This document shows, piece after piece, positions 13,143 to 35,594 of a DNA stretch of 37,860 nt (positions are counted from its first letter, which is position 1; each line of letters opens with the position of its first letter). Source of the DNA: an uncultured Gammaproteobacteria bacterium. Lineage in GTDB: Bacteria > Patescibacteriota > Patescibacteriia > JACPL01 > CAZRYK01. Position numbers and translations under genes: made by a program. The notes under the pieces are model-generated. The model saw nothing but the letters and a program-made list of their open reading frames with translations, did no database searches and was not told where the DNA came from. The stretch is taken from NCBI GenBank assembly GCA_964604315.1, contig CAZRYK010000003.1:4105-41964 (forward strand), read 5' to 3'.

Positions 13143-13222
13143 AAAGCGATTCGGTTGGCGTTAAGGAGTCACTCGCCGGAGGGCACCAATGTAGTGACTC
13201 CGTACGCCAAGCGGATCGCTTT
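13143..13222 (+). repeat. Structured intergenic motif, copy A (three stacked stems)
   Basis: AAAGCGATTCG/CGGATCGCTTT, TTGGCGT/ACGCCAA and GGAGTCACT/AGTGACTCC stems; homologous to 35519-35594. Confidence 0.8.
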
Positions 13223-13243
13223 TTCTATCGCCGATCGCTAAAG

Positions 13244-14551
13244 TTAATAATCCTTTAGTTTGCGCATATCGACATGGTCTTTGATTTTCTCCAAGGCCTT
13301 TGCTTCAATTTGCCGAATGCGTTCACGCGTCACGCCAAATTCCTGGCCCACTTCTTCTAAGGTGTGCGCAATGCCATCGTCTAAACCAAACCGCATTTCC
13401 AAAATCTTTTGTTCGCGCGGCGTTAAGTCTCCAATAATCGATCGCACATGATCGCGCAACAATTCTAACGACGCGGCGCGGTCTGGCGTGACGGTAGTGG
13501 TGTCTTCAATAAAGTCACCCAAAATGGAATCTTCATCGTCTTCCCCAACGGATGTTTCTAACGACACGGTGTCTTGCGAAATTTTAATAATATGGTGAAT
13601 CTTTTCTACCGGCTCGCCCATTTCTGCGGCAATTTCTTCGGGCATGGGTTCCCGGCCCAAAGATTGAATCAACTGACGCTCAATTTGCTGAAACTTATTG
13701 ATGGTTTCCACCATGTGCACCGGAATCCGAATCGTGCGCGATTGGTCGGCTAACGAACGGGTAATGGCTTGGCGAATCCACCACGTGGCATAGGTTGAAA
13801 ATTTATAACCCTTGCGATAATCAAATTTTTCCACGGCACGAAACAACCCCACGTTGCCTTCTTGAATTAAATCCAAAAGCGTTAATGCCCCGCCGGTAAA
13901 TTTTTTGGCAATCGAAACCACCAACCGCAAGTTGGCTTCAATCAATCTCTTTTTGGCTTCTTCATCGCCCATTTCTTTGCGTTTCGCCAACGCGATTTCT
14001 TCTTTTCCGCTCAACAAGGGAACTTTTCCAATTTCGCGCAAATACATTTGAATGGAATCCGAGGCAATGTCCCCAAGATCAAAACGTTTTTCGGTTTCAT
14101 CGGCTTGTTTTTTCTTTTCCGCATTCCGTTCTTTCAATGTTTTCAAACGTAAAATCGGTTTGGCAAGCAAATCCGGTTCGGTTTCTTTTAACTCAATGCC
14201 TTGCAGTTCCAGATCGTCTAACAATTCCTCATAGCGATCCAAATGCTGATCGACATTGGGCCATAAATAGAGTATTTCGTTTTCGGTAATAAATCCGCGT
14301 GAACGGCCTTTGCGAATCAACAGCGCCACCACGTCATCGACACTCATTACCTGCGGGCTTTCTTGGCGAGCGTATGCTTTCGGCGTCAAGGAAGAAACTT
14401 TACCCGCGTGACGTTTACGAGCGTGACGTTTACGCGCACCGATTCTTTTCCCATTCTTTTTGGCTATTCTTTTTTTCCGCGGGATAATACGTTTTTTTCG
14501 TGACAATGGTTGTCGCGGATGCTTTTTGTTTTTCTTCGCGTTTTTGGACAT
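13244..14551 (-). CDS. rpoD: RNA polymerase primary sigma factor with K/R-rich N-terminal extension
   Basis: [54 protein letters not shown]; likely ATG 14551. Confidence 0.97.
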
Positions 14552-14578
14552 GAGGGTAAAAGGACAATAATGAAACAC

Positions 14579-16366
14579 CTACATAGAACGTCGCAACGCA
14601 TTATTTAACCGAGCGCTCTCGGCCATAAGGCGATGGAATTCTTCTGAAGATGCTTTCGCAGGGTTACCCTCTAAATGTCGAATATGGTTTTCGATCTCTC
14701 GCAGGTCTTTTTTGATTTTTGCCCGGGTTAAGAGCTGTAAACGTATAGAAAGCTCATGTTGGATTTCAATGAAATCCTTTGAGTCTGTAAGCTCACCCCC
14801 CAAGATTTGCAATGACCGAACGAGGTCGACAAACGATTTATGTAAATGGTCGACGAAAGAGGTTTCCGTATTCGAAGCGTTTGCAGTATAGTATAAAACC
14901 ATTTCTTTGTAAAGTTCTTGGTGCAACTTTTGTGAAAACAACGTGGGTTCCACGTCTTTCATCACTTGGTCAAGCATTTCGGGCTTCGCAATAAGCACGG
15001 CCAAAATATATTCCGCGGCGCTGTCGATAGCGGTAAGATGCTCTTCGCCAACAGCATTTTTTGTTCCCACGGGTTGTTGAAACGTGCGCGGGTCTTTGAG
15101 CCGAAGCAAAAGTTCATGTAAATCTTCGCGCCGCACGGCCATGCGATCCGCAAGACGATCAATATAATACGTGCGCTCCATGGCGTTGGGGATTTTCCGT
15201 ATTTCGGTAAGGAGTTTTACCGCGGCTTTCTTTTTTTGGTCAATATCTTTCATGTCGATGTTGCCTAACACCGCGGTGATTAAATATTCCATCACCGGCA
15301 CCGCCTGCTCAATGGCTTTTTGAAAACTTTCAGGATTTTTTTGAATGCATTCATCCGGGTCTTTGCCAAACGGCAAAATAACGGCCTTCACGGCAATGTC
15401 GTAACGTTGCACAACATCTAAACCCCTGCGCGCCGCTTCAAAGCCCGCGCTGTCTGCGTCAAAACAAAACGCCAACGTGGTGGCATACCGCGAAAGCAAA
15501 CGTACTTGAGCTTCGGTTAATGCGGTTCCAGAGACTGCGACCACATTGGTAAATCCGTGTTGGTGGCTGGAAAGCACATCCATTTGACCTTCGACCAAAA
15601 CCGCCATGCCCGTGGTACGGATTTTTTGCTTGGCTTTGTCTAACGCATACACCATGCGGCTTTTGTCATACAACAGCGTTTGCGGCGAGTTCACATATTT
15701 ACCGCCCTGCTGGTCAGCGCTTAAAATGCGGCCGGTGAAACCCACAACGTTGCCTTGATGATCTTGCAGAGGGAACATTAAGCGTTTGCGGAAACGGTCA
15801 AAGTTGCGGCCGCCTTTGCCTTCCAAAATTAAACCCGCTTCGCGCATTTCTTGTGGTGTGAACCCGCGTTTTTTTAAAAACGTCAACAGCGCATCCCATT
15901 GGTCTGGGGCATACCCCAATTTAAATTGATCCACGGTTAAGGGTTCAATTTTCCGTTCTTTAATGTAGTTGCGCGCAATGGTTCCTTCTTGGGATTTATG
16001 CAACGCCGCAACATAAAAATCGCTTGCGGATTGCAAACAATCGAGCAAACGGGTTTTGTGATTCACCACGCGCGGGTCAAAACGTTCAATTTTTACCCCG
16101 GCCCGCTCGGCTAATAATCTTAAGGTCTCGGGAAACTCCAACCCCTCGATTTTTTGAATAAACGAAAACACGTCGCCGCCTTCGCTACAGCCAAAACAAT
16201 GCCAAATTTGTTTATCTTGCGACACGGTAAAAGATGGAGTTTTCTCATTGTGAAAAGGACATAAACCTTTATAGTTCGTGCCCGCTTTCTTGAGCTGAAC
16301 ATACTCCTTGACCACATCGTAGATGTCGATTCGTGTTTTGACCTCCTCTACGGTTCTGTCAGACAT
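14579..16366 (-). CDS. dnaG: DNA primase
   Basis: Zinc finger CPFHNEKTPSF...WHCFGC, KYVNSP, TOPRIM VEGQMDV and FDADSAG; likely ATG 16366. Confidence 0.97.
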   Translation of the reverse strand: MSDRTVEEVKTRIDIYDVVKEYVQLKKAGTNYKGLCPFHNEKTPSFTVSQDKQIWHCFGCSEGGDVFSFIQKIEGLEFPETLRLLAERAGVKIERFDPRVVNHKTRLLDCLQSASDFYVAALHKSQEGTIARNYIKERKIEPLTVDQFKLGYAPDQWDALLTFLKKRGFTPQEMREAGLILEGKGGRNFDRFRKRLMFPLQDHQGNVVGFTGRILSADQQGGKYVNSPQTLLYDKSRMVYALDKAKQKIRTTGMAVLVEGQMDVLSSHQHGFTNVVAVSGTALTEAQVRLLSRYATTLAFCFDADSAGFEAARRGLDVVQRYDIAVKAVILPFGKDPDECIQKNPESFQKAIEQAVPVMEYLITAVLGNIDMKDIDQKKKAAVKLLTEIRKIPNAMERTYYIDRLADRMAVRREDLHELLLRLKDPRTFQQPVGTKNAVGEEHLTAIDSAAEYILAVLIAKPEMLDQVMKDVEPTLFSQKLHQELYKEMVLYYTANASNTETSFVDHLHKSFVDLVRSLQILGGELTDSKDFIEIQHELSIRLQLLTRAKIKKDLREIENHIRHLEGNPAKASSEEFHRLMAESARLNNALRRSM

Positions 16367-16509
16367 AGCGTACTTACTATAAAGGAGCGGGCGGCATTTG
16401 TCCAACACCAGGTGTTTGACATGCGCTATGATGGGTGGCGCCGCAGAAAACTTTTTTTTGAAAGTCTCTACGGCGCCGATCTACCTCCTTTACCCGCCTT
16501 CGCAGAAAA

Positions 16510-16573
16510 CTCTGGGCTTTAGCCCAGAGATGAATACGAGCGGGTATCCTCCGAAGCCTTGCGCGAAGGAGGA
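16510..16573. repeat. Two adjacent REP-like palindromes
   Basis: CTCTGGGCT-TT-AGCCCAGAG (16510-16529) and TCCTCC-GAAGCCTTGCGCGAA-GGAGGA (16547-16573). Confidence 0.5.
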
Positions 16574-16574
16574 T

Positions 16575-17870
16575 TCACTGAAGCTTCTGCATCGCAACCG
16601 CGGGGTTGTCGCCTCCGACGCGGTAGTCGAGCCAGGACACGATGCAACTGCCGTCTGCTCCCAACAGCACAGCGGCTTTCCGTTGCGGCATGGCAGTGTC
16701 GGAAACTCCGACGCCGTCTTGCGCCCACCGCGCCGTATTGGTGTTGTTGAACGCTTGCACATACACGGTCTCGTTGTCGCGACCGTTCCGATCGTCTGTC
16801 CATGCGGTGTAGACGAAAGTTTCGGACGCCACGGCTTGCAGATCGTCGATGAGCTTTGCCGGAAGACGATGCGCCCACGACATGCCAACATTGTGTCCGG
16901 AGAAATCGCGGATCACACTGCACAGACTATCATTCTGACTCCACGCAATGAACGTGTTGTCCTGAAACGCCGTCGAGGCATGGGTGCGCAAAGAGCCGCT
17001 TGTGACGGTGATCGTCTTTGCAGGCCAGAACCGAAAGTTCCCCTGCACGTCCAGAATCTGAAACCGGAGCGCGGTGCGACCATCGCTTTGCAGTTCGCGA
17101 TAGGTGATAGCAACGTACCCGGGTTCGGATTCCGACAGCCGCGCGTTGCTGGCAAAGTTCGCGTTCGGCGTTACGTCCATGCCGTTCACCGGGAACAGCC
17201 ACTGGCGATTGGTGGTGTCATAGCTTTGAGCGTACACATGCGGATGCATTTCGTCGCGCCAGTCGGTCCAGGCCCAAAACACCACATCGTTGTTGCGGCA
17301 AACCCGAACGTCCATGAGGGCGCCGGCATGCGCACAGATAGTGGCAACATTCAGCGCGGTGTCGTCAACGAACGCGGCCGTAATGGCGCGTGTTGCACTG
17401 TCGGCAATCCATGTGATGACAGTTCCTTCCGGCGTTGCGATTGCCGAAAGTTCCGCCACCCCGCCGCGTGCTTCTGCGATCAGGGTTTCGGAAATGGTGT
17501 CAGTGGAAACGCGCAACGAAACCACCGACCAGTCATTGCCGTTGAGCGACTCGCGGAACACGACGCGGTTGCCGGCTATGCACGGATTGGTCTGAATGCC
17601 TTCGCGGCCCAACCGCATGCCGGTGTTGCCGAACAGCTTTCGCCCGTCGGTCGTCACCATCTGTACGGCGATATCCGGATCGGATCCGCTGTCGTCTTGC
17701 CATGCGATGACGGCGCCCTCCTTGTGTGTCTGCATGCTGGGCACATACTGCCCGTTGCCGTGATCGGCGACCAAGATGCCCATGGCGCCCCATTCTCGTG
17801 GGTCATGGGTCTCTTGCACAGGCGCGACTTGCCCGCACATCAGCAGGGTATACAACCATGCGGTGAACAT
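16575..17870 (-). CDS. Secreted repeat protein, probable beta-propeller; GC-rich
   Basis: About 6 repeats of hhxW-x-D(x)R...(V/I)YxQ; signal-like N-terminus; GGAG 8 nt before the ATG. Confidence 0.75.
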   Translation of the reverse strand: MFTAWLYTLLMCGQVAPVQETHDPREWGAMGILVADHGNGQYVPSMQTHKEGAVIAWQDDSGSDPDIAVQMVTTDGRKLFGNTGMRLGREGIQTNPCIAGNRVVFRESLNGNDWSVVSLRVSTDTISETLIAEARGGVAELSAIATPEGTVITWIADSATRAITAAFVDDTALNVATICAHAGALMDVRVCRNNDVVFWAWTDWRDEMHPHVYAQSYDTTNRQWLFPVNGMDVTPNANFASNARLSESEPGYVAITYRELQSDGRTALRFQILDVQGNFRFWPAKTITVTSGSLRTHASTAFQDNTFIAWSQNDSLCSVIRDFSGHNVGMSWAHRLPAKLIDDLQAVASETFVYTAWTDDRNGRDNETVYVQAFNNTNTARWAQDGVGVSDTAMPQRKAAVLLGADGSCIVSWLDYRVGGDNPAVAMQKLQ

Positions 17871-17968
17871 TGCGTTGTCTCCAGAAAAATGCCCAATATC
17901 AAAGAGCGCTCTTCGTGTTTCGAAGAACGCCCTACAGACATCTTAACACATCAATCAAAAAATACAAA

Positions 17969-18838
17969 TTAATCCTGTGGATGACTCTTAATGATCAGAT
18001 GCCTCATTAATGATCTCTGCAATACCTTGATTCTGTCGTCCCCGGCTCCCATGGCCCCTTGAAAAATCTTTTCAAAACCCCCTCCCTCCAGTTCTTTTAG
18101 CATCGCTTCCGATATACCTCCCTTTGTGGCAATCGTTTTGATCAACGCCGAGGGAAATTTCTTGGATGCATAAAGATGCGTCAGCGTTCCTGTAAATGTT
18201 TGCAAAACGACCCGCAAGGCTATTTCTGGCGGCAAGCCTGCCTTTACTCCAGAACGGACAAAAACCTCAATACATTTCAAGACCACTGCCGGACCACACC
18301 CCGAAATAAGTGTTAGAACATCTAAATCGTCTTCTTGTTCCACCTCCACGAGACACCCCAATTTTTCCATGACCTTAAAAAAAACTTTTCTTTCTTTGCT
18401 ACGAAAACAATCAGGCGCAAACACGCCAATAACCCCCTCATTATGAGCAATAGCAATATTAGGCATCATGCGTATAAATTGTGAACGGATGTTCGGCGCA
18501 TAACTTTTAAGAAGTTGCAACTTAACTCCCGCGGCAAAAGAGACAATCAATTTTCCATCGATAGACTTTTTGACTTCCCTCATAACCTCTTGCACTGTCT
18601 TTGGCTTAACTGCAAGAAAAATCCAGTCCGCGTTGCTAACCGCTATTCGATTATTCTTCGAAACGTTGATACTAAATTCTTTTTTTATTGCTTGAAGGTG
18701 AATACCCAGTGGATTGGATACGGTAATGCACCGAGGATGAACAATGCCGCCACGAGCAAGGCCAGCCACAAGCGCTTGAGCAATGTTCCCTGACCCTATG
18801 ATGGTTATTTTTTTATTCTCTAATCTGTCCGTTGCCAT
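17969..18838 (-). CDS. proC: Pyrroline-5-carboxylate reductase
   Basis: IIGSGNIAQAL, FLAVKP, IRMMPN, LISGCGPA, IATKGGIS. Confidence 0.95.
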   Translation of the reverse strand: MATDRLENKKITIIGSGNIAQALVAGLARGGIVHPRCITVSNPLGIHLQAIKKEFSINVSKNNRIAVSNADWIFLAVKPKTVQEVMREVKKSIDGKLIVSFAAGVKLQLLKSYAPNIRSQFIRMMPNIAIAHNEGVIGVFAPDCFRSKERKVFFKVMEKLGCLVEVEQEDDLDVLTLISGCGPAVVLKCIEVFVRSGVKAGLPPEIALRVVLQTFTGTLTHLYASKKFPSALIKTIATKGGISEAMLKELEGGGFEKIFQGAMGAGDDRIKVLQRSLMRHLIIKSHPQD

Positions 18839-20006
18839 ACATTTTCCATTTATAAGTTAATAATTCTTGTAAACCAATGGGCCCGCGTCCGTGAAGTTTA
18901 CCGGTGGCAATTCCCATCTCTGCACCTAGTCCAAAAACATACCCATCATGCAAGCGCGTCGAACAGTTAACAAAAATGGCGGCCGCATCAATCGCATGAG
19001 TAAACGTCTCGATGACTTTTTTATCGGCGGCAATAATACCTTCAGAGTGTTTTTTACCGTAACGATTTATGAACACGATTGCCTCTTCGAGATTCTTAAC
19101 GATTTTGATTGCGATCTTCAAATCTAAAAATTCTTTTTTATACGCTTTTTCGCCTTTCATTATTCTTACACCCGACTGAAATAAATCTTTCGTGAGCATG
19201 GGGACGAACGCTCCGGCAACAGCTTGATGAACAACAACGGCATCGAGTGCGTTGCACGCCGATGGCTTGCTTGTCTTTGCATTGATAATAATGCGCCTCG
19301 CTATGGCAAGATCTGCGCTTTGATCTATATAGATCCTCGCTCCTCCGGCGGAGTGCGCTAGAACGGGAATAAGGGATTGCTTTTGCACAGCTTTTACAAG
19401 ATCATAACCGCCGCGGGCAATAACTAAATCAATAAATGTATCCTCGCGCATTATTTTATTAACTTCCTGCCTCGTTTCTATACAAGTTACCGTTTTTTCA
19501 CTCATCCCAGATTCTTTAAGAGATCGCGCAATGCATGCACAAAGCTCGCGATTGGTGTTCAGCGCTTCAGAACCCCCCTTAAGAACAGCGCCATTGCCAG
19601 ATTTTATACAAAGCGCGGCAACCTCGACTGTTACTTCGGGCCGAGATTCATAAATAACTAAAATAACACCAAGGGGCACGGCCATTTTATTCACCACTAA
19701 TCCCTTTTTGATCTTTTTCTTTTCTATTATCCGCCCCACGCCGCTATGGAGTTTGCCCACCGCCCTTAGTTCCTTGAGCATCTGAATAATACCCTTGCTG
19801 TCCAGCTTTAATCGTTCGATCATTGGAGCGGCCATTCCTTCTTTTTTTGCCTTCAAGAGATCTTTCTTATTCGCTTCAATAATGTGTTGTCGCCGCTCAT
19901 GAATAATTTTTCCGAGCTTCAACAGACACGCATTTCTTGCCTCTTCCGACGTTTCAGAAAGCAGTTGCGCAGATTTTTGCAGTTCTTTTAACGCTTGTTT
20001 ATTCAT
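18813..20006 (-). CDS. proA: Gamma-glutamyl phosphate reductase
   Basis: VPLGVILVIYESRPEVT, LKGGSEA, PSACNALD (catalytic Cys), VNCSTRLHDG, EMGIATGKLHGRGPIGL. Confidence 0.96.
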   Translation of the reverse strand: MNKQALKELQKSAQLLSETSEEARNACLLKLGKIIHERRQHIIEANKKDLLKAKKEGMAAPMIERLKLDSKGIIQMLKELRAVGKLHSGVGRIIEKKKIKKGLVVNKMAVPLGVILVIYESRPEVTVEVAALCIKSGNGAVLKGGSEALNTNRELCACIARSLKESGMSEKTVTCIETRQEVNKIMREDTFIDLVIARGGYDLVKAVQKQSLIPVLAHSAGGARIYIDQSADLAIARRIIINAKTSKPSACNALDAVVVHQAVAGAFVPMLTKDLFQSGVRIMKGEKAYKKEFLDLKIAIKIVKNLEEAIVFINRYGKKHSEGIIAADKKVIETFTHAIDAAAIFVNCSTRLHDGYVFGLGAEMGIATGKLHGRGPIGLQELLTYKWKMYGNGQIRE

Positions 20007-22140: not shown

Positions 22141-22323
22141 TTATACTTTCTTCCAGTCCTTGACAATGAGCCGATCACCCTCACGTATGACGACAACTTT
22201 TTGCTTTTCTTTCCACCCCAACGCGCGGATCATTTCAATAGGGATAGTCACGCCGTAACTCGACCCACCGCCGAGTTTGGTGATTTTGCGAACATTGTGT
22301 TCTTCTTGCGATCGTCGTGGCAT
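22141..22323 (-). CDS. AbrB/MazE/SpoVT family DNA-binding protein
   Basis: RKITKLGGGSSYGVTIPIEMIRALGWKEKQKVVV swapped-hairpin pattern. Confidence 0.85.
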   Translation of the reverse strand: MPRRSQEEHNVRKITKLGGGSSYGVTIPIEMIRALGWKEKQKVVVIREGDRLIVKDWKKV

Positions 22324-22341
22324 AAAGTACGTATTTTAATA
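22296..22341. repeat. 46-bp direct repeat, copy 1 (abrB 5' end and upstream bases)
   Basis: TGTGTTCTTCTTGCGATCGTCGTGGCATAAA identical at 24769-24799; 44/46 identity overall. Confidence 0.9.
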
Positions 22342-22420
22342 GGTATAATCTTTTTTGTCGTTAAAGCCTTATTTCTGTGAACAAGTTTCTCAACAAGCTC
22401 ATGAGCGTTCATTGCTACAC

Positions 22421-23935: not shown

Positions 23936-24796
23936 TTATTCTGTACGGCTGTATGCGGCTAATGTTTGAAGGTCTTCAAGATTTATAACAAAACTTCTGC
24001 CTCTTAATTGAACGTCTAACTGTACATCTTCTTGATCTTTACGATAGATTTTTAATGCAACCTGCTCTGCGTGATCCATGCCTCCGCCGATCTTCTCAAC
24101 AAAACTTTTTCCATCGGGATTAATGGGATTTTGGTTAATATGGTCGCCAATAGTGTTCTTTAAAAAAGATAAGAGGGTTGGCAGATGCGTAATATTGACT
24201 ATTGTTCCCTCAACATTTGACGGCAACGTTGCACTGACATCGACAAATCGCATGACATGACGCGCAACAGCAGATGCAAGCTCACGCGGACTCGTTATAT
24301 CCGGTGGTATTTCTTCTTCAGTCTTTTCGACAAATTGTGCGCTTCCCCCGAATTGCTCTCTTATCAATTCTTTATTTAAAAGGCCCGTGCCTAACAGCCG
24401 TTCTTTTCTATGGATACGCACTCCTTCGAATCCTTTTTTCGTCAATGCTTGTATTTTTTCTGATTGTGCTTTTGGTACCGCCACTTGATCCATAAGGATA
24501 TCGGCTGTTTGTTGCGCTCTTTCTTTATCGCTGTAATACACTTTAATACCATCGTGAGGGGTTTCAATGACACTGCCGAGTTCGGCTGCTTGTGCTTGTC
24601 CTTTTTCTGTTAAGGCGGGTCCGCCAGCTGTATCAGATGGTTCACCGTGTCGCGCAAACACAAAATGCAAGGTGATATTATGACCCTGTTCCGGACTTTG
24701 CTCGAATTCAACATGAGATTTTTCAGGATTCACTCCTACCCCGCCCAGTTGAATGAATTTGCTGATGCTGTGTTCTTCTTGCGATCGTCGTGGCAT
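23936..24796 (-). CDS. Histidine phosphatase superfamily protein with an AbrB-derived N-terminus
   Basis: FARHGEP (RHG), YYSDKERAQQTA, ITHLPTL; begins MPRRSQEEH like the AbrB; alternative GTG start at 24733. Confidence 0.82.
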   Translation of the reverse strand: MPRRSQEEHSISKFIQLGGVGVNPEKSHVEFEQSPEQGHNITLHFVFARHGEPSDTAGGPALTEKGQAQAAELGSVIETPHDGIKVYYSDKERAQQTADILMDQVAVPKAQSEKIQALTKKGFEGVRIHRKERLLGTGLLNKELIREQFGGSAQFVEKTEEEIPPDITSPRELASAVARHVMRFVDVSATLPSNVEGTIVNITHLPTLLSFLKNTIGDHINQNPINPDGKSFVEKIGGGMDHAEQVALKIYRKDQEDVQLDVQLRGRSFVINLEDLQTLAAYSRTE

Positions 24797-24814
24797 AAAA
24801 TACATATTTTAATA
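24769..24814. repeat. 46-bp direct repeat, copy 2
   Basis: Matches 22296-22341 at offset 2473; overlaps inverted repeat AAATACATAT/ATATGTATTT (24798-24821). Confidence 0.9.
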
Positions 24815-24920
24815 TGTATTTAAATACATATCTTTAGTATAGCAGAAAATTATGCTGTAAAATACTGCACGGAAAAAAATAATAAATGTTATAACTATCC
24901 CTAGGCCAAACGATGTACAT

Positions 24921-25046: not shown

Positions 25047-25098
25047 AAATAACATTTCACAGACGATCATAGCTCATGTAATGGGCTATGATTGTCTG

Positions 25099-25185
25099 CG
25101 GAAGGGGAGAGATTCGAACTCTCGGTACCATTTCTGGTACACATCCTTTCCAGGGATGCCAATTAAACCACTCTTGCACCCTTCC
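25099..25185 (-). tRNA. tRNA-Ser(GGA)
   Basis: GGAAGGG acceptor, CATCC-CTGGAAA-GGATG anticodon arm, long variable arm, GAGAG-TTCGAAT-CTCTC T-arm, G73; CCA not fully encoded (GCA). Confidence 0.95.
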
Positions 25186-25195: not shown

Positions 25196-26197
25196 TTATA
25201 CCCTTTTCAGAAAAAGGTATTCTCTGAACTTACTAATGTGCTTGGGATTATTTGATCCTACTATTCTTATGAACTTTTGTATACCGGGAAAGTTATAGAT
25301 ATAGATTCTACTAGAAGTAGCTTTTTTCACCTTTATTCCATAAGAGAATAATGTGTCATAAAATATATTAATAAGTGGAAGCGACTGATTCGTAAAACAC
25401 AGACCAAAAGCTTTACATATTCTGGCGGGCCCCCGTCTATGAAAATAGAACCCACCATCCGTATCGAACAAGCCACGCAGACAACGTTTGAGAAACAAGG
25501 GATTCTTTTGGATCCACAACGGGATCTTTACCTGATGCAAAACTTTATTTCCTCTTCTTAATCCAAACTGCTCAAGCCTTGTGACCAGTCTCACTCCAGA
25601 AATTGTCAGTCGAATAACATTTTTACGTTCATGCCATGATGGTTTTTCTCCAAGAACCTCCATCATTAGAGAAGAAACAAATCTCGCATAGGCTCTATCA
25701 TCAACTTTGTGCAGAGTAATTGTTAATTGTGAATTTGTCAATCCGCCGTCCCCAAGGATAATACCGATCAATTCCGCTAATAAACAGGAGTGTCTGACGC
25801 CCACAAAATCTTTCCTTGTTATACATCCTAACTTTGAGTACTTCTCTGGATTTTCTCGCCTTCGCTTTTGAGAAATTCTTCCACCCTTTTTTCTTCCCTC
25901 GGGAGTTCCCGGTGGTCCGTATAATTTTAGCCTCGCTATTCCTCCCATTGGCGCAGATTTTTCAATATACCAATAGTTTTGAAGTTTCTTTATCCCACCG
26001 GTCGGAATGCTAAATTTTTTACTTAAAGACAGAATGGCGTCATAATCTGCTGTAAGCTTTTCGTTACGCCAATCTCTAAATGACCGCGTACTTACATTAC
26101 ATATCTTTGCTAATGAATCCCACGGTAGTCCGCTCTTTTGTTTTACGCTATGAAGGAAGTCTCTTTGCTTTCCTGTAAGGAATTGTGCTCTAGGCAT
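25196..26197 (-). CDS. LAGLIDADG-domain protein with N-terminal HTH-like region
   Basis: LAELIGIILGDGGL and CLRGLFDTDGG double motifs; ATG 26197; stop ends 10 nt before the tRNA-Ser 5' end. Confidence 0.85.
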   Translation of the reverse strand: MPRAQFLTGKQRDFLHSVKQKSGLPWDSLAKICNVSTRSFRDWRNEKLTADYDAILSLSKKFSIPTGGIKKLQNYWYIEKSAPMGGIARLKLYGPPGTPEGRKKGGRISQKRRRENPEKYSKLGCITRKDFVGVRHSCLLAELIGIILGDGGLTNSQLTITLHKVDDRAYARFVSSLMMEVLGEKPSWHERKNVIRLTISGVRLVTRLEQFGLRRGNKVLHQVKIPLWIQKNPLFLKRCLRGLFDTDGGFYFHRRGPARICKAFGLCFTNQSLPLINIFYDTLFSYGIKVKKATSSRIYIYNFPGIQKFIRIVGSNNPKHISKFREYLFLKRV

Positions 26198-26300
26198 AGA
26201 ATAAGTATAAAGTTTATTATACAACTATGCAAACATTCCTATACTTTCTAACCAATACCAAAATCTTATCTAGAGATAAGAGACGATGATCCGTATTTCT

Positions 26301-28220: not shown

Positions 28221-28251
28221 ATCTCTCTAAAAATAAATATATACTTACCGC

Positions 28252-30639
28252 TTACTTCTGATGCTTCGCCAAATCCATTGTGGTCTTTACCACCGTATCC
28301 GGGTTCAAACTCATGGAATCGATTTTGTGGTCTAACAAAAAACGCGCAAATTCTGGCGAGTCCGAAGGCCCTTGCCCACAAATGCCGATCTTGGTTTTTG
28401 TTTTATGCGCCACATCAATGACATGCGCTATCATCCATTTCACCGCTTCGTTATTTTCATTGTAAATATGTGAGACCAATTGCGAATCCCTATCTACGGC
28501 CAAGGTCATTTGCGTTAAATCGTTGGAGCCAATCGAAAACCCGTCAAAAATCTTGGCAAATTCTTCGGCCAAAATCACGTTCGATGGCACTTCACACATG
28601 ACGTAAATTTCCAAACCGTCCTTGTGCTGTACCAAACCATTTTTTGCTAATTCCGCAATCACGCGTTTGCCTTCTTCGGGCGTGCGGCAAATCGGAATCA
28701 TAATTTTCACGTTTTTTAACCCCACATCGTCGCGCACTTTTTTGTACGCCGCGCATTCCATGGCAAAAGCCGGCGCATAGGTTGCATCGTAATACCGCGA
28801 CGCCCCGCGCCAACCGATCATCGGGTTTTCTTCATGCGGCTCAAATTCCTGCCCGCCAATTAACCCCGCATACTCATTAGTTTTAAAATCGCTTAAGCGG
28901 AAAATGACATCTTTGGGGTAAAACGCCGCGCCAATCGTTGCAATGCCGTACGCCAATTTGTCGATAAAATATTGTTTTTTGTCTTTGTACCCTTTGGTGA
29001 GCTTTTCAATTTCATGTTGCGTCTTGCGGCTTTTCAATGTGTCAAAATGCACCAACGCCAAGGGGTGAATTTTAATGTTCGCCGTCACAATAAATTCTTC
29101 GCGCGCCAAGCCTACGCCATCATTCGGAATGAAACTTGCCGAAAACGCCAACTCTGGCGAGCCAATATTCATCATAATTTTTGTATGCCGCGGTTTTTTT
29201 AAACCCTTCAAACTGGTTTTATGTACTTCAAACGGAATAATACCCTTATAGACTTTTCCGTCGTCGCCCTCGGCACAGCTAACCGTAACTTCCGCGCCAT
29301 GCGGAATCTTTTTGGTTCCAGTTTCTGTTCCAATCACCGCCGGCACGCCAAATTCACGCGAGACAATGGCCGCATGACTGGTTCGCCCGCCGCGGTTAGT
29401 GACAATACCGCCAGCAATTTTCATAATCGGCTCCCAGTCTGGGTCCGTCATGTCGGTCACCAACACCTCGCCTTTTTGAAATTCATGAATTTGCGACACA
29501 TCGCGAATCACGCGCGCTTTGCCACTCCCCACCTTGCTACCGACCGGCGTTCCGGTGATGAGCACATGCGCGCCTTTGTTTTGAATTTTGTATTCTTCTA
29601 ACACGCTACGATCTTTTTGCGATTGCACGGTCTCGGGACGCGCTTGCACAATATACAATTTGCCGTCTAACCCATCTTTGGCCCATTCCATGTCCATGGG
29701 TTTGTGGTAATGGTTTTCAATCACCACGGCCCATTGCGCTAATTGCAAAATTTCTTTGTTGGTTAATACAAAACGCTCGCGATCTTTTGCCGACACAAAA
29801 ACATTTTTTGTCGGGTTTTTGGGATCGTTATTGTAAATCATGCGGCGGCGTTTACTGCCCAATTCTTTCGAAATAATCGGCTGGTGTTTTCCGTCGAGCG
29901 TGGGTTTAAACACATAATATTCGTCCGGGTTCACCGCGCCTTGCACCACGTTTTCCCCTAAACCGTACGCCGCGTTGATTAACACCGCATTCTGAAAACC
30001 GGTTTCGGTATCAATAGAAAACATGACGCCACTTGCGGCTTTGTCTGACCGCACCATTTTTTGCACGGCCACGGAAAGCGCAATAGAAAAATGATCAAAG
30101 CCTTTTTCTTGCCGATAACTAACGGCGCGATCGGTGAACAACGATGCGAACGCTTTTTTAATCGCGATTTGCAGTTCTTTTTCCCCGCGGATGTTTAAGT
30201 AGGTTTCTTGCTGACCGGCAAACGATGCGTCGGGTAAATCTTCGGCCGTGGCACTAGAGCGTACCGCCATGTCCACATTTTTACCGTAGCGTTTTTGCAT
30301 TTCTTTATACGCAACACCAATGTCTTGCGTGAGTTTTTTCGGAAACCGCGTTTGCAAAATGGTTTTGCGTACCAATAACGCATGGTGCGCTAAATTCCTT
30401 GTGTCGCGCGTATTCAAGGTTTTTAAAATCTCGCGAATCTTATTTTTGGCGCCGGATTCTTCCAATAAAAATCGGTAGGCCGAAGAGGTTACCGCAAAAC
30501 CACCAGGCACCCGCACGCCCTTAGAGGTAAGCTTTTGAATCATCTCGCCCAAAGAGGCATTTTTGCCACCCACCAAAGGAATGTCTTTGATGTCGACTTC
30601 CTCGAACCATAAAATAAATTTCTCGTCGCGTGTTATCAT
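28252..30639 (-). CDS. ppsA: Phosphoenolpyruvate synthase
   Basis: VGGKNASLGEM, AVRSSATAEDLPDASFAGQQ, GGRTSHAAIVSRE, DGFSIGSNDLTQ, GICGQGPSD; ATG 30639. Confidence 0.97.
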   Translation of the reverse strand: MITRDEKFILWFEEVDIKDIPLVGGKNASLGEMIQKLTSKGVRVPGGFAVTSSAYRFLLEESGAKNKIREILKTLNTRDTRNLAHHALLVRKTILQTRFPKKLTQDIGVAYKEMQKRYGKNVDMAVRSSATAEDLPDASFAGQQETYLNIRGEKELQIAIKKAFASLFTDRAVSYRQEKGFDHFSIALSVAVQKMVRSDKAASGVMFSIDTETGFQNAVLINAAYGLGENVVQGAVNPDEYYVFKPTLDGKHQPIISKELGSKRRRMIYNNDPKNPTKNVFVSAKDRERFVLTNKEILQLAQWAVVIENHYHKPMDMEWAKDGLDGKLYIVQARPETVQSQKDRSVLEEYKIQNKGAHVLITGTPVGSKVGSGKARVIRDVSQIHEFQKGEVLVTDMTDPDWEPIMKIAGGIVTNRGGRTSHAAIVSREFGVPAVIGTETGTKKIPHGAEVTVSCAEGDDGKVYKGIIPFEVHKTSLKGLKKPRHTKIMMNIGSPELAFSASFIPNDGVGLAREEFIVTANIKIHPLALVHFDTLKSRKTQHEIEKLTKGYKDKKQYFIDKLAYGIATIGAAFYPKDVIFRLSDFKTNEYAGLIGGQEFEPHEENPMIGWRGASRYYDATYAPAFAMECAAYKKVRDDVGLKNVKIMIPICRTPEEGKRVIAELAKNGLVQHKDGLEIYVMCEVPSNVILAEEFAKIFDGFSIGSNDLTQMTLAVDRDSQLVSHIYNENNEAVKWMIAHVIDVAHKTKTKIGICGQGPSDSPEFARFLLDHKIDSMSLNPDTVVKTTMDLAKHQK

Positions 30640-30646
30640 AGTCAAA

Positions 30647-30715
30647 GTAAGGGATAAGCGCTAAGGGCTAAGGGATAAGTATTTTTTCTTAACCCTTAAA
30701 CCTTATCCCTTATTC
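30647..30715. repeat. Inverted array of degenerate heptamers
   Basis: 5 x NTAAGNN (30647-30681), T6 spacer, 4 x CTTANNC (30688-30715). Confidence 0.7.
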
Positions 30716-30725
30716 CTGTTTGCTA

Positions 30726-31061
30726 TTACAAGTTAATCTTCTTCGCGTACTTTCCCAAAAAAGGCATGGCCCATTCCTCGCCAGACAAGGCTTTCACAAA
30801 ACCCGTAATAGCAAGGACTAAAACCAAGAGCCCTAAAAACCATCCAATCACCGGAATGCCAAAAATCGGCCAGCCAACAATTTCTATGGCGAACAATAAC
30901 AATCCTTGTTTGGCATGATGCTGAACAAACGCGCTATCCTTTCGCAAAAACAGCGGGACTAAACATAAAATCCACACATAGCTTAGAGCGGCCAGCAAGC
31001 TGTCTTCGTGGGCTTTTTTCTTTTCCTCGCTCAAGGGCTTGCTTTCGTACGGGTCTGTCAT
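30726..31061 (-). CDS. DUF4870/Tic20-like membrane protein
   Basis: AALSYVWILCLVPL...FVQHHAKQGLLLF...KALSGEEWAMPFLG. Confidence 0.85.
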   Translation of the reverse strand: MTDPYESKPLSEEKKKAHEDSLLAALSYVWILCLVPLFLRKDSAFVQHHAKQGLLLFAIEIVGWPIFGIPVIGWFLGLLVLVLAITGFVKALSGEEWAMPFLGKYAKKINL

Positions 31062-31086
31062 ACTTTTAGTATACCAAAAAATTCCA

Positions 31087-31434
31087 TTATTTCAAACCTA
31101 AAGCATCATACAAGGCGCGATCAATACTCTTTTGGGTAGAATCAGAAATTTCACCTAGTTCGCCCAACACAATACGTTGATCAAGCGTTGCGATCTTTTG
31201 GCATTTCACTACAGATGATCGTTTCAAACCGGTAGAAGAAAAGCTGGGATCCTTTTCTTTTAGCACGACTTCAGTTTTTGTAGCGCGCAAGGGCAATACC
31301 GACGATACAAAAACAACAATAATATCTTTAGCGTCTACTAAGGGTTTGGAAACAATAATTGCCGGGCGGACTTTCTTTGCAGACAGGTCGGTAAAAGGAA
31401 AGGGAACAAGAATGACTTTTCCGCGCTCAAACAT
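31087..31434 (-). CDS. Type II toxin, PemK/MazF family endoribonuclease
   Basis: RGKVILVPFPFTDLSAKKVRPAIIVS, GLKRSSVVKCQKIATLD. Confidence 0.92.
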   Translation of the reverse strand: MFERGKVILVPFPFTDLSAKKVRPAIIVSKPLVDAKDIIVVFVSSVLPLRATKTEVVLKEKDPSFSSTGLKRSSVVKCQKIATLDQRIVLGELGEISDSTQKSIDRALYDALGLK

Positions 31435-31687
31435 ACGACTTCTTTAAATCCTTTCGCGAATAGACGTCCGGCTCTTCTTCTAAGAAATCAAAACCTCCGC
31501 CATAGGCATTCATATTCGTTATGTCATCAAGATCGGGATTATACGTATCCGGAAACTTAATAAGCAGTGCTTCGGCCTTCTGGTGACGGCCGATAGCGAT
31601 AGGTTTATTGGAATACCGAACAATGCTTAACAGCTTCGATAGTTGTTTGCGAGCGTCGGTTGTAGTAATAACGGCAATGGGTTCCAT
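31427..31687 (-). CDS. Putative antitoxin with Phd/YefM-like N-terminus and acidic C-terminus
   Basis: ITTTDARKQLSKLL...IAIGRHQKAEALL; acidic tail FDFLEEEPDVYS; overlaps the toxin start by 8 nt. Confidence 0.78.
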   Translation of the reverse strand: MEPIAVITTTDARKQLSKLLSIVRYSNKPIAIGRHQKAEALLIKFPDTYNPDLDDITNMNAYGGGFDFLEEEPDVYSRKDLKKSYV

Positions 31688-31694
31688 AACATAA

Positions 31695-31751
31695 ATAGAT
31701 ACATTTTGTACATTATGTATCTATTGTACATCACAAAACGTTAAGTGTCAA
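31695..31751 (-). promoter_or_regulatory. TA-operon promoter with palindromic operator
   Basis: TTGACA(31751-31746)-17 nt-TACAAT(31728-31723); palindrome ATAGATACAT-TT-TGTACA-TT-ATGTATCTAT at 31695-31724; second TGTACA at 31725-31730. Confidence 0.75.
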
Positions 31752-31816
31752 GTTGATTCGATGCTGGGGTGCGGCCGACGTGTTTCCACGCCAGCCACAC
31801 CCCAAGCGAGCCTCCA

Positions 31817-32044
31817 TCAGCGGGTCGTGCCGTTCACCGCCTTCTTGGCGGCGGTGTAGCGCACGAGCTCCGCAACGATAACACCGGGAGCCGCCGGCGC
31901 GTCGACGCGGTCACTGACGATCGTGACGATCGCTTCGTCGTTCGCCAGAAACTCAACGCGATCGCCGCGCTCGATGATACGCGGCGACAGATCCCGATGC
32001 CCACACGCGCTATTCCAGGTAGCGCGCAAGATATTGAGACTCAT
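31817..32044 (-). CDS. Small GC-rich hypothetical protein (75 aa)
   Basis: GGAGGT at 32053-32048, 3 nt before ATG 32044; MSLNILRATW... Confidence 0.5.
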   Translation of the reverse strand: MSLNILRATWNSACGHRDLSPRIIERGDRVEFLANDEAIVTIVSDRVDAPAAPGVIVAELVRYTAAKKAVNGTTR

Positions 32045-32227
32045 GATACCTCCCTCAAAGGCAACGCGCGGAGAGGGACGCTCCCAACCAAGGGCGTCCT
32101 TCACGCGCAAGTTAAAAAGAGAATACTTAAAAACCCCCATTCTGTCAACCCCGCAAATTGACAAAACGCCCCACGCTTGGCTATGATAGACAAAAGAGTC
32201 TTGACACTTTGGTGTATTTATCATCCC

Positions 32228-35053
32228 ATGAACAAGCCTACGCGAGAATCAACCGGCAATAAATCCGTAGCGGCACAGCGCGAGGAAGAAATCCTCGCGT
32301 TTTGGAATGAGCAAAAGATTTTTGACAAATCGCTTGCCAAAGACGCTCCCCAAGGCGAGTTTGTTTTCTATGATGGCCCGCCGTTTGCCACGGGCTTGCC
32401 GCATTCGGGCACATTGCTTTCTTCGATTGCTAAAGATGTTATTCCCCGCTACAAAACCATGCGCGGGTACCATGTGCGTCGCCGTTGGGGCTGGGATTGT
32501 CACGGCCTGCCCATAGAATCGCTGGTCGAAAAAGAATTGGGGCTAAAAACCAAAAAAGACATTCTAGACATTGGCATTGAAAAGTTCAACGAAACCGAGC
32601 GGCCGTTTGTGTTGCGTTACGTGGACGAATGGAAAAAATATATTGAGCGGGTTGGGCGCTGGGTCGATTTTGACCACTCGTACAAAACCATGGACAACAC
32701 GTATATTGAAAGCGTGTGGTGGGCGATTAAGGAAATGCACAAAAAAGGCAAAATCTACGAAGGCCGCAAAGTGCTATTGTACTGCCCACACTGCGAAACG
32801 CCGCTTGCCAAAGCCGAGATTGCCATGGACAACACGTACCAAGACGTGACCGAAGAAGCCGTGACGGTAAAATTTGAAGTCAAAAATCCTGCCGATCATA
32901 GTTTGCCGCAAAACACCTTTATTCTTGCCTGGACAACAACGCCGTGGACATTACCCGGCAACGTCGCCTTGGCCGTGGGGAAAGACATCAGTTATGTTTT
33001 GGTAGAAGAAGACGATGCGCGTTATCTTTTGGCAAAAGATTTATATAAAGGTACCGGCGATATTGTAAAAGAATTCACGGGCGAGGATCTTGCGGGCTTA
33101 GCATACACGCCGCTTTATGAAGTGCAAAAAGTTCAACAGTATGAGGGTAAAAAATACCAAGTCCTTCTGGCCGATTTTGTTTCTACCGACGAAGGAACCG
33201 GCGTGGTGCACACAGCGGTCATGTACGGCGAAGACGATTTTGCGCTGGGGCAAAAAGAACACCTACCTATGGTGCAGTTGTTGGACGCCTCGGGCAAATA
33301 CAACACAGATGCACCAGAATTGGTGCGCGGCATATACATTAAAGATGCCGAGCGGCTGATTAAAAAAGATTTAGAAGACCGCGGGCTGCTTTTTAAACGC
33401 GAAAACAATACGCACTCGTACCCGCATTGCTACCGTTGCGGCACACCGTTAATTTATAACGCTATTTCGTCGTGGTTCATTGACATTCAGTCGGTGAAAC
33501 AGCGCATGATCGAAGAAAACGAACAGATCAATTGGTCGCCGCAGCACCTACAACACGGACGGTTTGGCCACATTCTTGAAACCGCGCCAGATTGGACCAT
33601 TTCGCGCAATCGTTTTTGGGCCAGCCCGTTGCCCATCTGGAAATGCGAACAGTGTAAAGAGATTGCGGTTGTTGGTTCGCGCAAAGAATTAAAAGAACGT
33701 GCAAACGAACCCGTACCAGAGGATTTAGATTTGCACCGCCCTTACATTGATGCGTTTACATTAAAATGTTCCTGTGGCGGTACTATGCGCCGTATTCCGG
33801 AAGTGGTGGATTGCTGGTTAGAATCCGGGTCTATGCCTTTTGCCGAATACCACTACCCGTTTGAAAATGTTGAGGAATTCGAAAAACGTTTCCCTGGCGA
33901 TTTTATTGCGGAATACATTGCGCAAACTCGCACATGGTTTTACTACATGCACGCCCTCGGGGTGTTGTTGTTTAACAAACATGCGTTTAATAATGTTGTC
34001 ACCACGGGGAACGTTTTGGCAGCCGACGGGTCTAAAGTGTCGAAATCCAAGAAAAATTATACCGACCCGTATGTGTTGTTTAATACCTTTGGTGCCGATG
34101 CGTTCCGTTTTTACTTAATGTCGTCTGTGGTGATGCAAGCCGAAGACATGATGTTTATTGACAGCGAGCTTCGGGAAACCCACAACAAAGTAGTGAACCT
34201 TCTGCGGAACACCTTAACGTTCTACGGGCTGTACAAAGAAAATGCTCCGGAGCCCGAGCGTGCGAGCGATCATATTTTGGATCGCTGGATTTTGGCTCGC
34301 CTCAATGAAGCGTTACAAACCACCACCGAAAGTTTTGAAGCCTATGACATGGTGCATGCCACACGACCCATGCGCGACTTTATTGACGATTTTTCCACGT
34401 GGTATGTGCGCCGGTCGCGGGAACGCGTCAAAAGTGCTGATGCCGGGCAAGCATTAGGCACCATGCGTTATGTCTTGCGTGAATTTTCTAAAATCATTGC
34501 GCCGATCATGCCCTTTATTGCCGAAGAAATTTACCGCACGGTACGCACAGACGATGACCCGGAAAGTGTGCATTTAACATCGTGGCCCAAAAACACCTCT
34601 GACATGGATTTGGCGATTTTACAAGATATGGCAACAACGCGAGCCTTAGTTTCGTCGGCCTTGAAACTTCGACAAACCGCGGGCTTAAAAATCCGCCAAC
34701 CGCTTTCGAAACTTTCGGTCAAAAACGATCTTCTTAAAGATAAAGAAGAATATCTTGCGTTGATACGCGATGAAATAAATGTGAAAGCCATTGTTTTTGA
34801 CGCGTCGATTGCAGACGAAGCTGTTCTGGACACAACCATCACGCCAGAACTTGCCGAAGAAGGCGCGGTGCGAGAATTAATCCGCACGATTCAGGATTTA
34901 CGGAAAAAAAATGGGCTATCGCGAAACGATGCCGCGGTGTTGGTATATGCCAGCGACACGACGTTACTAGAAAAACACTGGGAAGAAATTCGCCAAACGT
35001 CGAACCTCCTGGAATTCAAAAAAGGCCAAAAAACCGCGATAGAAAAAGTCTAG
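32228..35053 (+). CDS. ileS: Isoleucine--tRNA ligase, type 2 (IleRS2)
   Basis: YDGPPFATGLPH, GWDCHGLP, AWTTTPWTLPGN, DWTISRNRFWASPLP, QTRTWFY; lacks the C-terminal zinc domain of IleRS1; ATG 32228. Confidence 0.95.
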   Translation: MNKPTRESTGNKSVAAQREEEILAFWNEQKIFDKSLAKDAPQGEFVFYDGPPFATGLPHSGTLLSSIAKDVIPRYKTMRGYHVRRRWGWDCHGLPIESLVEKELGLKTKKDILDIGIEKFNETERPFVLRYVDEWKKYIERVGRWVDFDHSYKTMDNTYIESVWWAIKEMHKKGKIYEGRKVLLYCPHCETPLAKAEIAMDNTYQDVTEEAVTVKFEVKNPADHSLPQNTFILAWTTTPWTLPGNVALAVGKDISYVLVEEDDARYLLAKDLYKGTGDIVKEFTGEDLAGLAYTPLYEVQKVQQYEGKKYQVLLADFVSTDEGTGVVHTAVMYGEDDFALGQKEHLPMVQLLDASGKYNTDAPELVRGIYIKDAERLIKKDLEDRGLLFKRENNTHSYPHCYRCGTPLIYNAISSWFIDIQSVKQRMIEENEQINWSPQHLQHGRFGHILETAPDWTISRNRFWASPLPIWKCEQCKEIAVVGSRKELKERANEPVPEDLDLHRPYIDAFTLKCSCGGTMRRIPEVVDCWLESGSMPFAEYHYPFENVEEFEKRFPGDFIAEYIAQTRTWFYYMHALGVLLFNKHAFNNVVTTGNVLAADGSKVSKSKKNYTDPYVLFNTFGADAFRFYLMSSVVMQAEDMMFIDSELRETHNKVVNLLRNTLTFYGLYKENAPEPERASDHILDRWILARLNEALQTTTESFEAYDMVHATRPMRDFIDDFSTWYVRRSRERVKSADAGQALGTMRYVLREFSKIIAPIMPFIAEEIYRTVRTDDDPESVHLTSWPKNTSDMDLAILQDMATTRALVSSALKLRQTAGLKIRQPLSKLSVKNDLLKDKEEYLALIRDEINVKAIVFDASIADEAVLDTTITPELAEEGAVRELIRTIQDLRKKNGLSRNDAAVLVYASDTTLLEKHWEEIRQTSNLLEFKKGQKTAIEKV

Positions 35054-35075
35054 CGCTCAACTAAAAAAGTTTTCG

Positions 35076-35105
35076 AGGGATCCGACCTCTGGAGGTCGGA
35101 TCCCT
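35076..35105. repeat. Perfect 14-bp inverted repeat after ileS (REP-like or terminator-like)
   Basis: AGGGATCCGACCTC-TG-GAGGTCGGATCCCT. Confidence 0.7.
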
Positions 35106-35162
35106 TCTGTTTGCAGAAGGGCTGGGCGCCGCGGGCAATGGTTGCCTCTGGCGCCCCCTGTC

Positions 35163-35384
35163 CTAGCTCGCGCGCCTCGCTCGTCCCATCGGGACGAGCC
35201 GAAGCTCCGCCTGCCGGAGCAGGCCAGTGTTCTCGCGTGCAGGATCGTATGGCGAGTACGAATCCAGGACGCGGAACTCCCGCTCTGCTTCGACGCGCGT
35301 CAGCGTGCCGCTGCAGAGGAGAAACGCGAGCTTGTCGGCCGGCGAGAAGTTTCGCCAACCGTTGGGGAGATTCTGAAGGTTCAC
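35163..35384 (-). CDS. Small GC-rich hypothetical protein (73 aa)
   Basis: AAAGGAGGT (35398-35390) 5 nt before the GTG start; region is also hairpin-rich. Confidence 0.45.
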   Translation of the reverse strand: MNLQNLPNGWRNFSPADKLAFLLCSGTLTRVEAEREFRVLDSYSPYDPARENTGLLRQAELRLVPMGRARRAS

Positions 35385-35518
35385 CGACGACCTCCTTTCG
35401 GCGGCGCGGACGCCGCCTAAGAAAAAACTCCCCCGTTGCTTGTTTGTGTATCACAAGTTCCGAACTTGTACAAGTATGGTACTTAATAAGCTGTAAGTAA
35501 TAAGTAGTAAGTAAACTA

Positions 35519-35594
35519 AAGCGATCGGATTGTTGTTAAGGAATGAATCGCCGGAGGATCCAATGCTTCATTCCGTACAACAAGCCGATCGCTT
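35519..35594 (+). repeat. Structured intergenic motif, copy B
   Basis: AAGCGATCGG/CCGATCGCTT, TTGTTGT/ACAACAA and GGAATGAA/TTCATTCC stems; same bulges and loop as 13143-13222. Confidence 0.8.

Follow-up and report, generated by a model that had tools for sequence, protein, structure and literature searches.

An intergenic palindromic hairpin repeat of variable occupancy, and candidate mobility, beside rpoD and groESL in a lineage of Patescibacteria

Hairpin-forming miniature inverted-repeat transposable elements (MITEs), such as RUP of Streptococcus pneumoniae and the Correia elements of Neisseria, are short, non-coding sequences with inverted ends and a stable stem-loop; they insert near gene ends, where they can terminate transcription or change mRNA stability. 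Known comparators at the RNA level include the anti-Shine-Dalgarno elements of 3' untranslated regions (3'-UTRs), as in icaR of Staphylococcus aureus, and small RNAs (sRNAs) with C-rich loops. Patescibacteria, also known as the candidate phyla radiation (CPR), have very small genomes and are thought to be poor in repeats and mobile elements. In REPINs, compensatory changes across the two arms are reported to be common (PMC3116915), and in the REP/RAYT system a GTAG tetranucleotide is the determinant (PMC8266576). Here, we describe a hairpin element of about 80 nucleotides (nt) that is found twice in a 37,860-nt stretch of DNA (GenBank assembly GCA_964604315.1, contig CAZRYK010000003.1, positions 4,105 to 41,964 of the forward strand; hereafter the window), whose proteins have their best matches in Patescibacteria, near Candidatus Kerfeldbacteria. 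Three copies of the element are known at three non-orthologous sites; occupancy differs at each site, the structure is kept through six double-sided pair changes, and the same sequence blocks are invariant throughout. We propose, with a probability of roughly 0.55, that the element is a non-autonomous palindromic repeat, dispersed but restricted to this lineage, with behavior similar to that of REPINs or hairpin MITEs.

The two copies in the window, A (13142-13223) and B (35517-35596), lie on the plus strand and are 77% identical across 87 nt (E=1.5e-12, blastn of copy A against the window). Copy A folds on that strand at -48.7 kcal/mol (z = -8.0) and copy B at -39.0 kcal/mol (z = -7.4), and for neither does any of 200 dinucleotide shuffles fold as well. 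An earlier note on this DNA, made from its letters alone, had placed both copies within slightly narrower limits and assigned them a single fold, and this holds, as do the details it gave of that fold. Both copies share a first stem (P1, 11 or 10 bp), a 1x1 purine mismatch, a second stem (P2, 7 bp), a UAA/GU internal loop, a third stem (P3, 8 bp) and an apex of ~20 nt. Copy A has its P1 at 13143-13153/13212-13222, a G.G mismatch at 13154/13211, its P2 at 13155-13161/13204-13210, followed by the UAA/GU internal loop, its P3 at 13165-13172/13194-13201, and an apical region of 21 nt at 13173-13193 that contains TCGCCGGAGG and CCAATG. Copy B builds the same architecture within 35517-35596 from an A.G mismatch and from a P2 (TTGTTGT/ACAACAA) and a P3 (GGAATGAA/TTCATTCC) that are both unlike those of copy A. 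The spacers that hold the two copies are both convergent: copy A starts 27 nt past a VKOR-family gene (plus strand, ending at 13115) and occupies most of the 128-nt spacer between this gene and rpoD (minus strand, ending at 13244), and copy B starts 460 nt past the gene for IleRS (plus strand, ending at 35053) within the 690-nt spacer that separates it from groEL (minus strand, ending at 35742). The copies are therefore 3' of minus-strand rpoD and groEL, as had been pointed out, and they are also 3' of plus-strand genes.

The stems of copies A and B differ by six double-sided changes and one one-sided change, with no broken pair, while the unpaired blocks UAA/GU, UCGCCGGAGG and CCAAUG (in RNA letters) are invariant between them. 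We took pair counts from an alignment (A5) of three sequences, namely A, B and the third copy, C, described below. This alignment has 26 pairs, with 96.6% of cells paired; the six double-sided changes fall one in P1, two in P2 and three in P3, and the single one-sided change is U-G to C-G. When the 3' partners are shifted by one to three columns as a control, 34-45% of cells pair and 0-1 double changes are seen, which bears out the earlier count of at least six compensatory pairs. The apical blocks are invariant in all three copies while the stems vary, in line with the earlier reading that unpaired bases are the conserved ones; every substitution among A, B and C falls outside the conserved blocks, and GTAC at the junction of P2 and P3 is conserved in all three. 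Some of the compensatory changes could have come from arm-to-arm templated repair of a quasi-palindrome rather than from independent selected events. Moreover, other spacer hairpins of this lineage also keep their pairing by compensatory change, so covariation alone does not single out the motif.

Comparison with close relatives shows that the three sites are variably occupied. In a contig of GCA_040960375.1 (L057), whose RpoD falls in the same 90% cluster as the RpoD of the window and whose coding DNA flanking the spacer is ~95% identical, site A is without the motif and an AT-rich hairpin of AGTAAGY heptamers lies between the VKOR-family gene and rpoD instead. A Logan contig from SRR22388340 (L058) encodes a GroEL 97% identical to that of the window and conserves, 3' of groEL, the first two hairpin blocks and the third hairpin, with compensatory changes of its own; at site B, a perfect AAAACAAAATCCGGTC/GACCGGATTTTGTTTT hairpin replaces both copy B and the heptamer half-arm that adjoins it in the window. 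The first 57 nt of the same contig are copy C (TAAGGAGACACTCGCCGGAGGACACCAATGAAGGCTTCCGTACGCCAAGCTGATCGC), which the contig start truncates; it shares 88% identity with copy A (E=1.4e-9), runs in the same direction as groES and ends 11 nt 5' of the groES -35 box. Sequence 5' of the same groES promoter in the window is unrelated, and the motif is absent there. Occupancy thus differs between close relatives at all three known sites. Synteny 5' of groES is not conserved in a further relative (L060).

Copy C retains TAAGG, TCGCCGGAGG, CCAATG, CCGTAC and the 3' arms of P2 and P1. All seven of its differences from copy A lie within ~17 of the 57 aligned positions, outside the conserved blocks. Its P3 contains a G-U pair, has an A.C mismatch and lacks one base, and this region is less stable than its counterparts in A and B. 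Together, these observations make selection on the sequence blocks clearer than selection on every pair: with respect to the earlier note's inference of a selected structure, copy C keeps the loop blocks and counts against strict structural selection. Copies A and C, at non-orthologous loci in different genomes, are closer to one another (88%) than are A and B in one genome (77%), and the 12% divergence between A and C is inside the range of orthologous DNA between these genomes (81-95% identity). This likeness at non-orthologous loci, combined with a divergence in the ortholog range, suggests recent copy-and-paste dispersal and not ancient paralogy.

Two fragments beside the copies fit sites that act as hot spots for repeat insertion, since they are the debris expected there. 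A solo P1 arm (GCCGATCGCT; 13231-13240, plus strand) lies 8 nt past copy A and immediately ahead of the stop codon of rpoD; its sequence matches the 3' arm of copy B exactly, and it is probably a remnant of an earlier copy. Abutting copy B is half of a second repeat family, a 27-nt TAAGTAR heptamer hairpin arm (35487-35513, plus strand) that is 96% identical to one arm of the hairpin at site A in L057, in the VKOR-rpoD spacer. Copies A and B and the unoccupied site C may have a 5' flank, (A/G)AAC, in common, which is a lead only.

Several observations weigh against a mobile repeat. None of the three sites provides a clean empty counterpart; a different hairpin stands at each, so that replacement or recombination is inseparable from transposition. 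Only three copies are known, one of them cut by a contig end (2.7 copies), and two of them are the copies seen in the 38-kb window. The contig break inside copy C is a weak sign of multiple copies, since in Logan contigs of the same strain the break likewise falls at, or within, other hairpins. Neither A nor B shows a target-site duplication: no direct repeat is common to the flanks of A (GAGAAACT / TTCTATCG) or to those of B (AGTAAACT / GTTAAATT), and no TA abuts both ends. Transposase, RAYT and integrase are absent among the 48 window reading frames (38 kb) scanned against Pfam. The motif has no conserved GTAG box 5' of the palindrome; GTAG occurs only in the loop of copy A, and it is GTAC that is conserved. 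Finally, copy C is 5' of a promoter, has no U-tract on the plus strand, and is oriented unsuitably for a groES terminator, in contrast to the terminator-like settings of the other two.

Those settings bear directly on the simplest competing account, that the copies are ordinary intrinsic terminators of shared ancestry, for example through local duplication, under no special selection and without mobility. Copies A and B do lie in 3' spacers and have U-rich tails, with UUUUUC following copy A on the plus strand and UUUAGUUUCUCUAAUUUUUU on the minus strand, and UUUAGUUUACUU following copy B on the minus strand; the compensatory changes in other spacer hairpins of the lineage also agree with this account. 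The earlier contrast between this motif and "a simple terminator" was accordingly drawn too sharply, given both the terminator positions of A and B and the general covariation of the lineage's spacer hairpins. Nonetheless, we consider plain terminators very improbable: the three copies are at unlinked sites in two genomes, a ~26-bp hairpin with conserved bulges and a conserved 20-nt apex goes far beyond the requirements of a terminator, another hairpin comes before copy B past each of its flanking genes, and copy C sits 5' of a promoter with no U-tract.

The question of which strand carries the structure leads to another alternative. The single U-G pair in copy A had been taken to favour the plus strand. 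Minus-strand folds of -43.0 (copy A) and -39.5 kcal/mol (copy B) are about equal to those of the plus strand, which makes a single U-G pair weak evidence. The signs of plus-strand pairing are this U-G pair, in P1, and the G-U pair in P3 of copy C, and on the minus strand the A.C mismatch of copy C becomes a G-U pair. On the minus strand, every one of the three copies can build a 4-bp helix, UUGG/CCGG, from its conserved blocks; two of the pairs in this helix are U.G pairs, impossible on the plus strand. This helix closes a 5-6 nt loop that contains exactly the variable apical bases, and the region of P3 plus apex is 1.7-2.4 kcal/mol more stable on the minus strand. The 5' flank AAAC(T) is conserved at copy A (13137-13141) and at copy B (35512-35516), within a flank (AAACTAAAG) that reads CUUUAGUUU on the minus strand, that is, as the start of a U-rich tail past the stem on the sense strand of rpoD and groEL. 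The UUGG/CCGG helix and the U-tract thus tend to favour the minus strand, whereas copy C has the opposite orientation relative to its neighboring gene.

These features are what a functional structured RNA module would offer, either as a cis-acting 3'-UTR element or as a 3'-derived sRNA, with the conserved apex as its active part. On the minus strand, sense to rpoD and groEL, such an RNA would present an anti-Shine-Dalgarno CCUCC beside the UUGG/CCGG helix and then the U-tract, and on the plus strand GGAGG, 5-6 nt and AUG, resembling a ribosome-binding site; copies could be gained and lost because the module is portable. Invariant apical blocks above variable stems in all three copies fit this idea, as do the minus-strand helix with its variable loop and added stability, the conserved flank with its U-rich tail, and another conserved block (CCUCCCCCUUCC) in the groEL 3' region, and the idea is compatible with mobility. 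We nevertheless hold it to be unlikely, if deserving of attention: copy C is oriented oppositely to A and B relative to its neighboring gene, close relatives do without the motif at rpoD and groEL, the minus-strand apical helix (P4) is invariant and hence has no covariation support, the reading frame that starts at the AUG is not conserved (AUG-UAG in A, 20 codons in B and 14 in C), and a consensus scan of 500-800 nt around copies A and B found no promoter-like site. A bolder and distinctly more doubtful version would make the element a portable RNA module of this Patescibacteria lineage that couples 3'-end formation to translational control wherever it has landed, with CCUCC beside the UUGG/CCGG wobble helix acting as an anti-Shine-Dalgarno sequence at the 3' ends of rpoD and groEL mRNAs and, when reversed, a Shine-Dalgarno sequence plus AUG acting as a ribosome trap.

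The palindromic organization, the conserved asymmetric bulges and the conserved center might instead mark a site at which a protein such as a recombinase, a nucleoid protein or an attC-like recombination system acts on double-stranded or cruciform DNA, where one protein binding both arms would produce the co-variation. However, a reader of double-stranded DNA would be expected to conserve the arms, which are the variable part here; no integrase or recombinase gene is nearby in the window, and the motif lacks attC core sites (RYYYAAC/GTTRRRY). We therefore give this reading very little weight.

Searches of public collections place the motif in no named family, and the earlier note had likewise assigned it to none; they also suggest a narrow distribution. 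Against Rfam 15 at the gathering score, the whole window gives only a tRNA and no family for the motif; in E-value mode, the best match of each copy is a microRNA model (E=5.4 and E=0.5), a generic hairpin match. Short sequence resemblances to a self-cleaving ribozyme and to signal recognition particle RNA were considered, and no such Rfam model matched; the latter RNA is also unfit because the element is multi-copy and strain-variable. A covariance model built from copies A and B (R1) found no further copy in the window, none in the rpoD loci of relatives at ~77% RpoD identity and none in a groESL locus at 76% GroEL identity. We also scanned collections with an exact 21-base pattern drawn from the conserved blocks. 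The only match in GTDB representative genomes, on an Intestinimonas contig, has no hairpin and is a chance match; no copy was found in IMG/VR, PLSDB plasmids or GenBank phages, where three viral pattern matches fail to score with the covariance model. Thus, the wider search for copies in other CPR genomes that had been suggested found none by pattern in GTDB representatives, JGI metagenomes or IMG/VR, and the one addition is copy C in a close relative. The motif family appears to be confined to one narrow lineage.

The JGI metagenomes gave 51 pattern matches. Of these, 47 map to a single soil element of the IS630 family, within its 5' UTR and start codon; the element encodes HTH_Tnp_IS630 and DDE_3 domains. 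We reject descent of the motif from this element: its inverted repeats (1311-1334 and 2333-2356 of contig L030) are unrelated to the motif, the flanks of its matches are no closer to the motif than shuffled sequence (p = 0.1-0.6), and three other, independent chance matches behave alike, so the pattern is shared by chance. The covariance model likewise scores the matches in this element at background level. The soil element is abundant in its own right (L030 1311-2356 and 46 other JGI contigs), and its 5' UTR forms a hairpin whose loop carries the Shine-Dalgarno sequence and whose stem includes the start codon (GCAUUGAUUCGCCGGAGGGUUGACCAAUGC).

For a mobile repeat, the sharing-out of conservation between blocks and stems suggests a two-part model. 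We propose that the element is copied to new intergenic sites and that its recognition or propagation takes place in single-stranded hairpin form. Those blocks that are unpaired or form only weak pairs (UAA/GU, TCGCCGGAGG, CCAATG and GTAC) would be its sequence-specific determinants, and hence fixed; if the single-stranded form is what is recognized, the stems need only remain complementary, and would therefore drift with compensating changes. Where it lies between gene ends, the element probably has a second role as a terminator or a stabilizer of 3' ends, a role suggested by position and U-tracts only. For rpoD and groEL this terminator would be read on the minus strand, as the stem followed by UUUAGUUU, and on the plus strand, where UUUUUC follows it, copy A would act for the VKOR-family gene as well. 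In this model we infer, rather than observe, the mobilizing enzyme, the recognition as single-stranded DNA and the terminator activity.

The hairpin repeat, which lies beside rpoD and groESL, shifts position between strains only a few percent apart. Spacers are occupied in like manner by at least one further hairpin family, that of the TAAGTAR/TAAGGGA heptamers, showing fast turnover of the intergenic spacers. A mobilizing enzyme, if found, would extend REPIN-like elements that depend on a host enzyme to the CPR, and the repeat would then also be a strain-level marker for these uncultured organisms. More generally, the motif counsels caution: compensatory stems and conserved loops do not alone mean a regulatory RNA.

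The surroundings of the copies hold further hairpins and variable segments. The second spacer-hairpin family consists of tandem heptamers (TAAGGGA / TAAGTAA) that place TAA in all three frames, and is seen in the window at 30647-30713 and 35484-35514, in L057 at 3125-3192 and in the relative L063 at ~805-891; the spacer between DUF4870 and PPDK has a heptamer hairpin in the window and in L063 and a different hairpin in another relative, L062. The groEL 3' region (35597-35741, minus strand; L058 2100-2235) has three hairpins that are kept with the 97% relative via compensatory changes, and its invariant blocks include ACUGCCUCCCCCUUCC (35654-35670, minus strand), similar to an anti-Shine-Dalgarno sequence. 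The stretch from the IleRS terminator hairpin to copy B includes a GC-rich island (35100-35440; 66-71% GC against a background of ~47%) that folds far better than shuffles (z = -4.5 on the plus strand, -5.9 on the minus strand), has no Rfam match and no Pfam match on four of its six reading frames, and may represent either a leftover of foreign DNA or a structured RNA that has escaped recognition. A near-perfect palindrome, GTTCCGAAC-yTGTACAr-GTTCGGAAC, is found at window 35453-35475, L058 2307-2335 and L062 1-30; it stands at the edge of a variable segment beside copy B, and two contigs of the relative end in it. In L062 and L063, a small GC-rich open reading frame (ORF; cf. window 31754-32148) directly adjoins DUF4870, without the MazF/Phd toxin-antitoxin pair of the window (31087-31687). 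This ORF, of ~76-83 aa (MSLN/DxLR...) with a GGAGG ribosome-binding site (window 31817-32046, minus strand), is conserved in the two relatives (L062 144-392; L063 90-341), has no Pfam match and is of unusual composition for the genome. In SRR22388340, the contig past this ORF ends in a palindrome, H, whose reverse complement forms the end of the groEL contig; with contigs ending in this palindrome on both sides, IleRS and the GC-rich island (window 32149-35452) appear to be missing between the same flanks in that strain. The only IleRS above ~78% identity in the protein collection is from the same strain, and the IleRS segment may have been acquired or rearranged in a strain-specific manner.

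Elsewhere in the window, the groES 5' region (37731-37802, minus strand) has a canonical TTGACA-N17-TATAAT promoter followed by a CIRCE operator (TTAGCACTC-N9-GAGTGCTAA), both conserved in the relative (L058 67-138). A 79-nt direct repeat, 84% identical between its copies at 22268-22346 and 24741-24819, covers, in two minus-strand genes, the first ~18 codons (MPRRSQEEHNVRKITKLGG) together with AT-rich sequence upstream of them; the genes are a 60-aa ORF (22141-22323) that is AbrB/SpoVT-like by eye and a histidine-phosphatase-family gene (23936-24805). A free-standing ORF at 25196-26224, with a weak LAGLIDADG_3 match (E=4.7e-6), adjoins a tRNA-Ser (25098-25185).

Set against described systems, the motif shares traits with several. 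It differs from integron attC sites in lacking their core sites in the copies and an integrase in the window, and its copies are 22 kb apart and adjoin housekeeping genes. With the anti-Shine-Dalgarno elements it shares a CCUCC that its minus strand places in the apical region of an mRNA 3'-end hairpin, but no target pairing was identified for it and the orientation of copy C is unfit. As in bidirectional intrinsic terminators, a GC-containing hairpin lies between convergent genes with U-rich sequence on both sides, most clearly at copy A; the motif is much longer than these, its conserved bulges and apex are unneeded for termination, and it recurs at unlinked loci, while close relatives lack it in the corresponding spacers. 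Like the hairpin MITEs, it is short and non-coding, with inverted ends and a stable stem-loop near gene ends. Unlike them, it has no TA or other target-site duplication, its terminal inverted repeats are not its best-conserved part, and no parent insertion sequence (IS) with the same termini was found, the window holding no IS at all; membership among DDE-type MITEs, whether IS630/Tc1-like or other, is not supported. In behavior, the motif comes nearest to such MITEs and to REPINs. With REPINs and the REP/RAYT system it has several traits in common: the motif is extragenic and forms a long hairpin of ~80-100 nt from two inverted arms around a spacer (PMC3116915; PMC8266576), and it has conserved blocks with compensating stems, solo-arm remnants near full copies, strain-variable occupancy and no target-site duplication. 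It departs from them in that its arms are not hairpins themselves, its center rather than its ends is most conserved, no RAYT gene is in the window and the host is a Patescibacterium. Of the three candidates that the earlier note had listed, a mobile hairpin is thus the one we favor, given that sites A and B are empty of the motif in relatives and that copy C is non-orthologous; its link to RAYT is not supported, with no conserved GTAG box and no RAYT or other transposase gene in the window, and membership of REP/RAYT or of any other named family is unproven. The motif is most likely a new sequence family, in an unusual host phylum, within a known general kind, the selfish and mobile intergenic hairpin repeats that can also stop transcription, rather than a new regulatory RNA.

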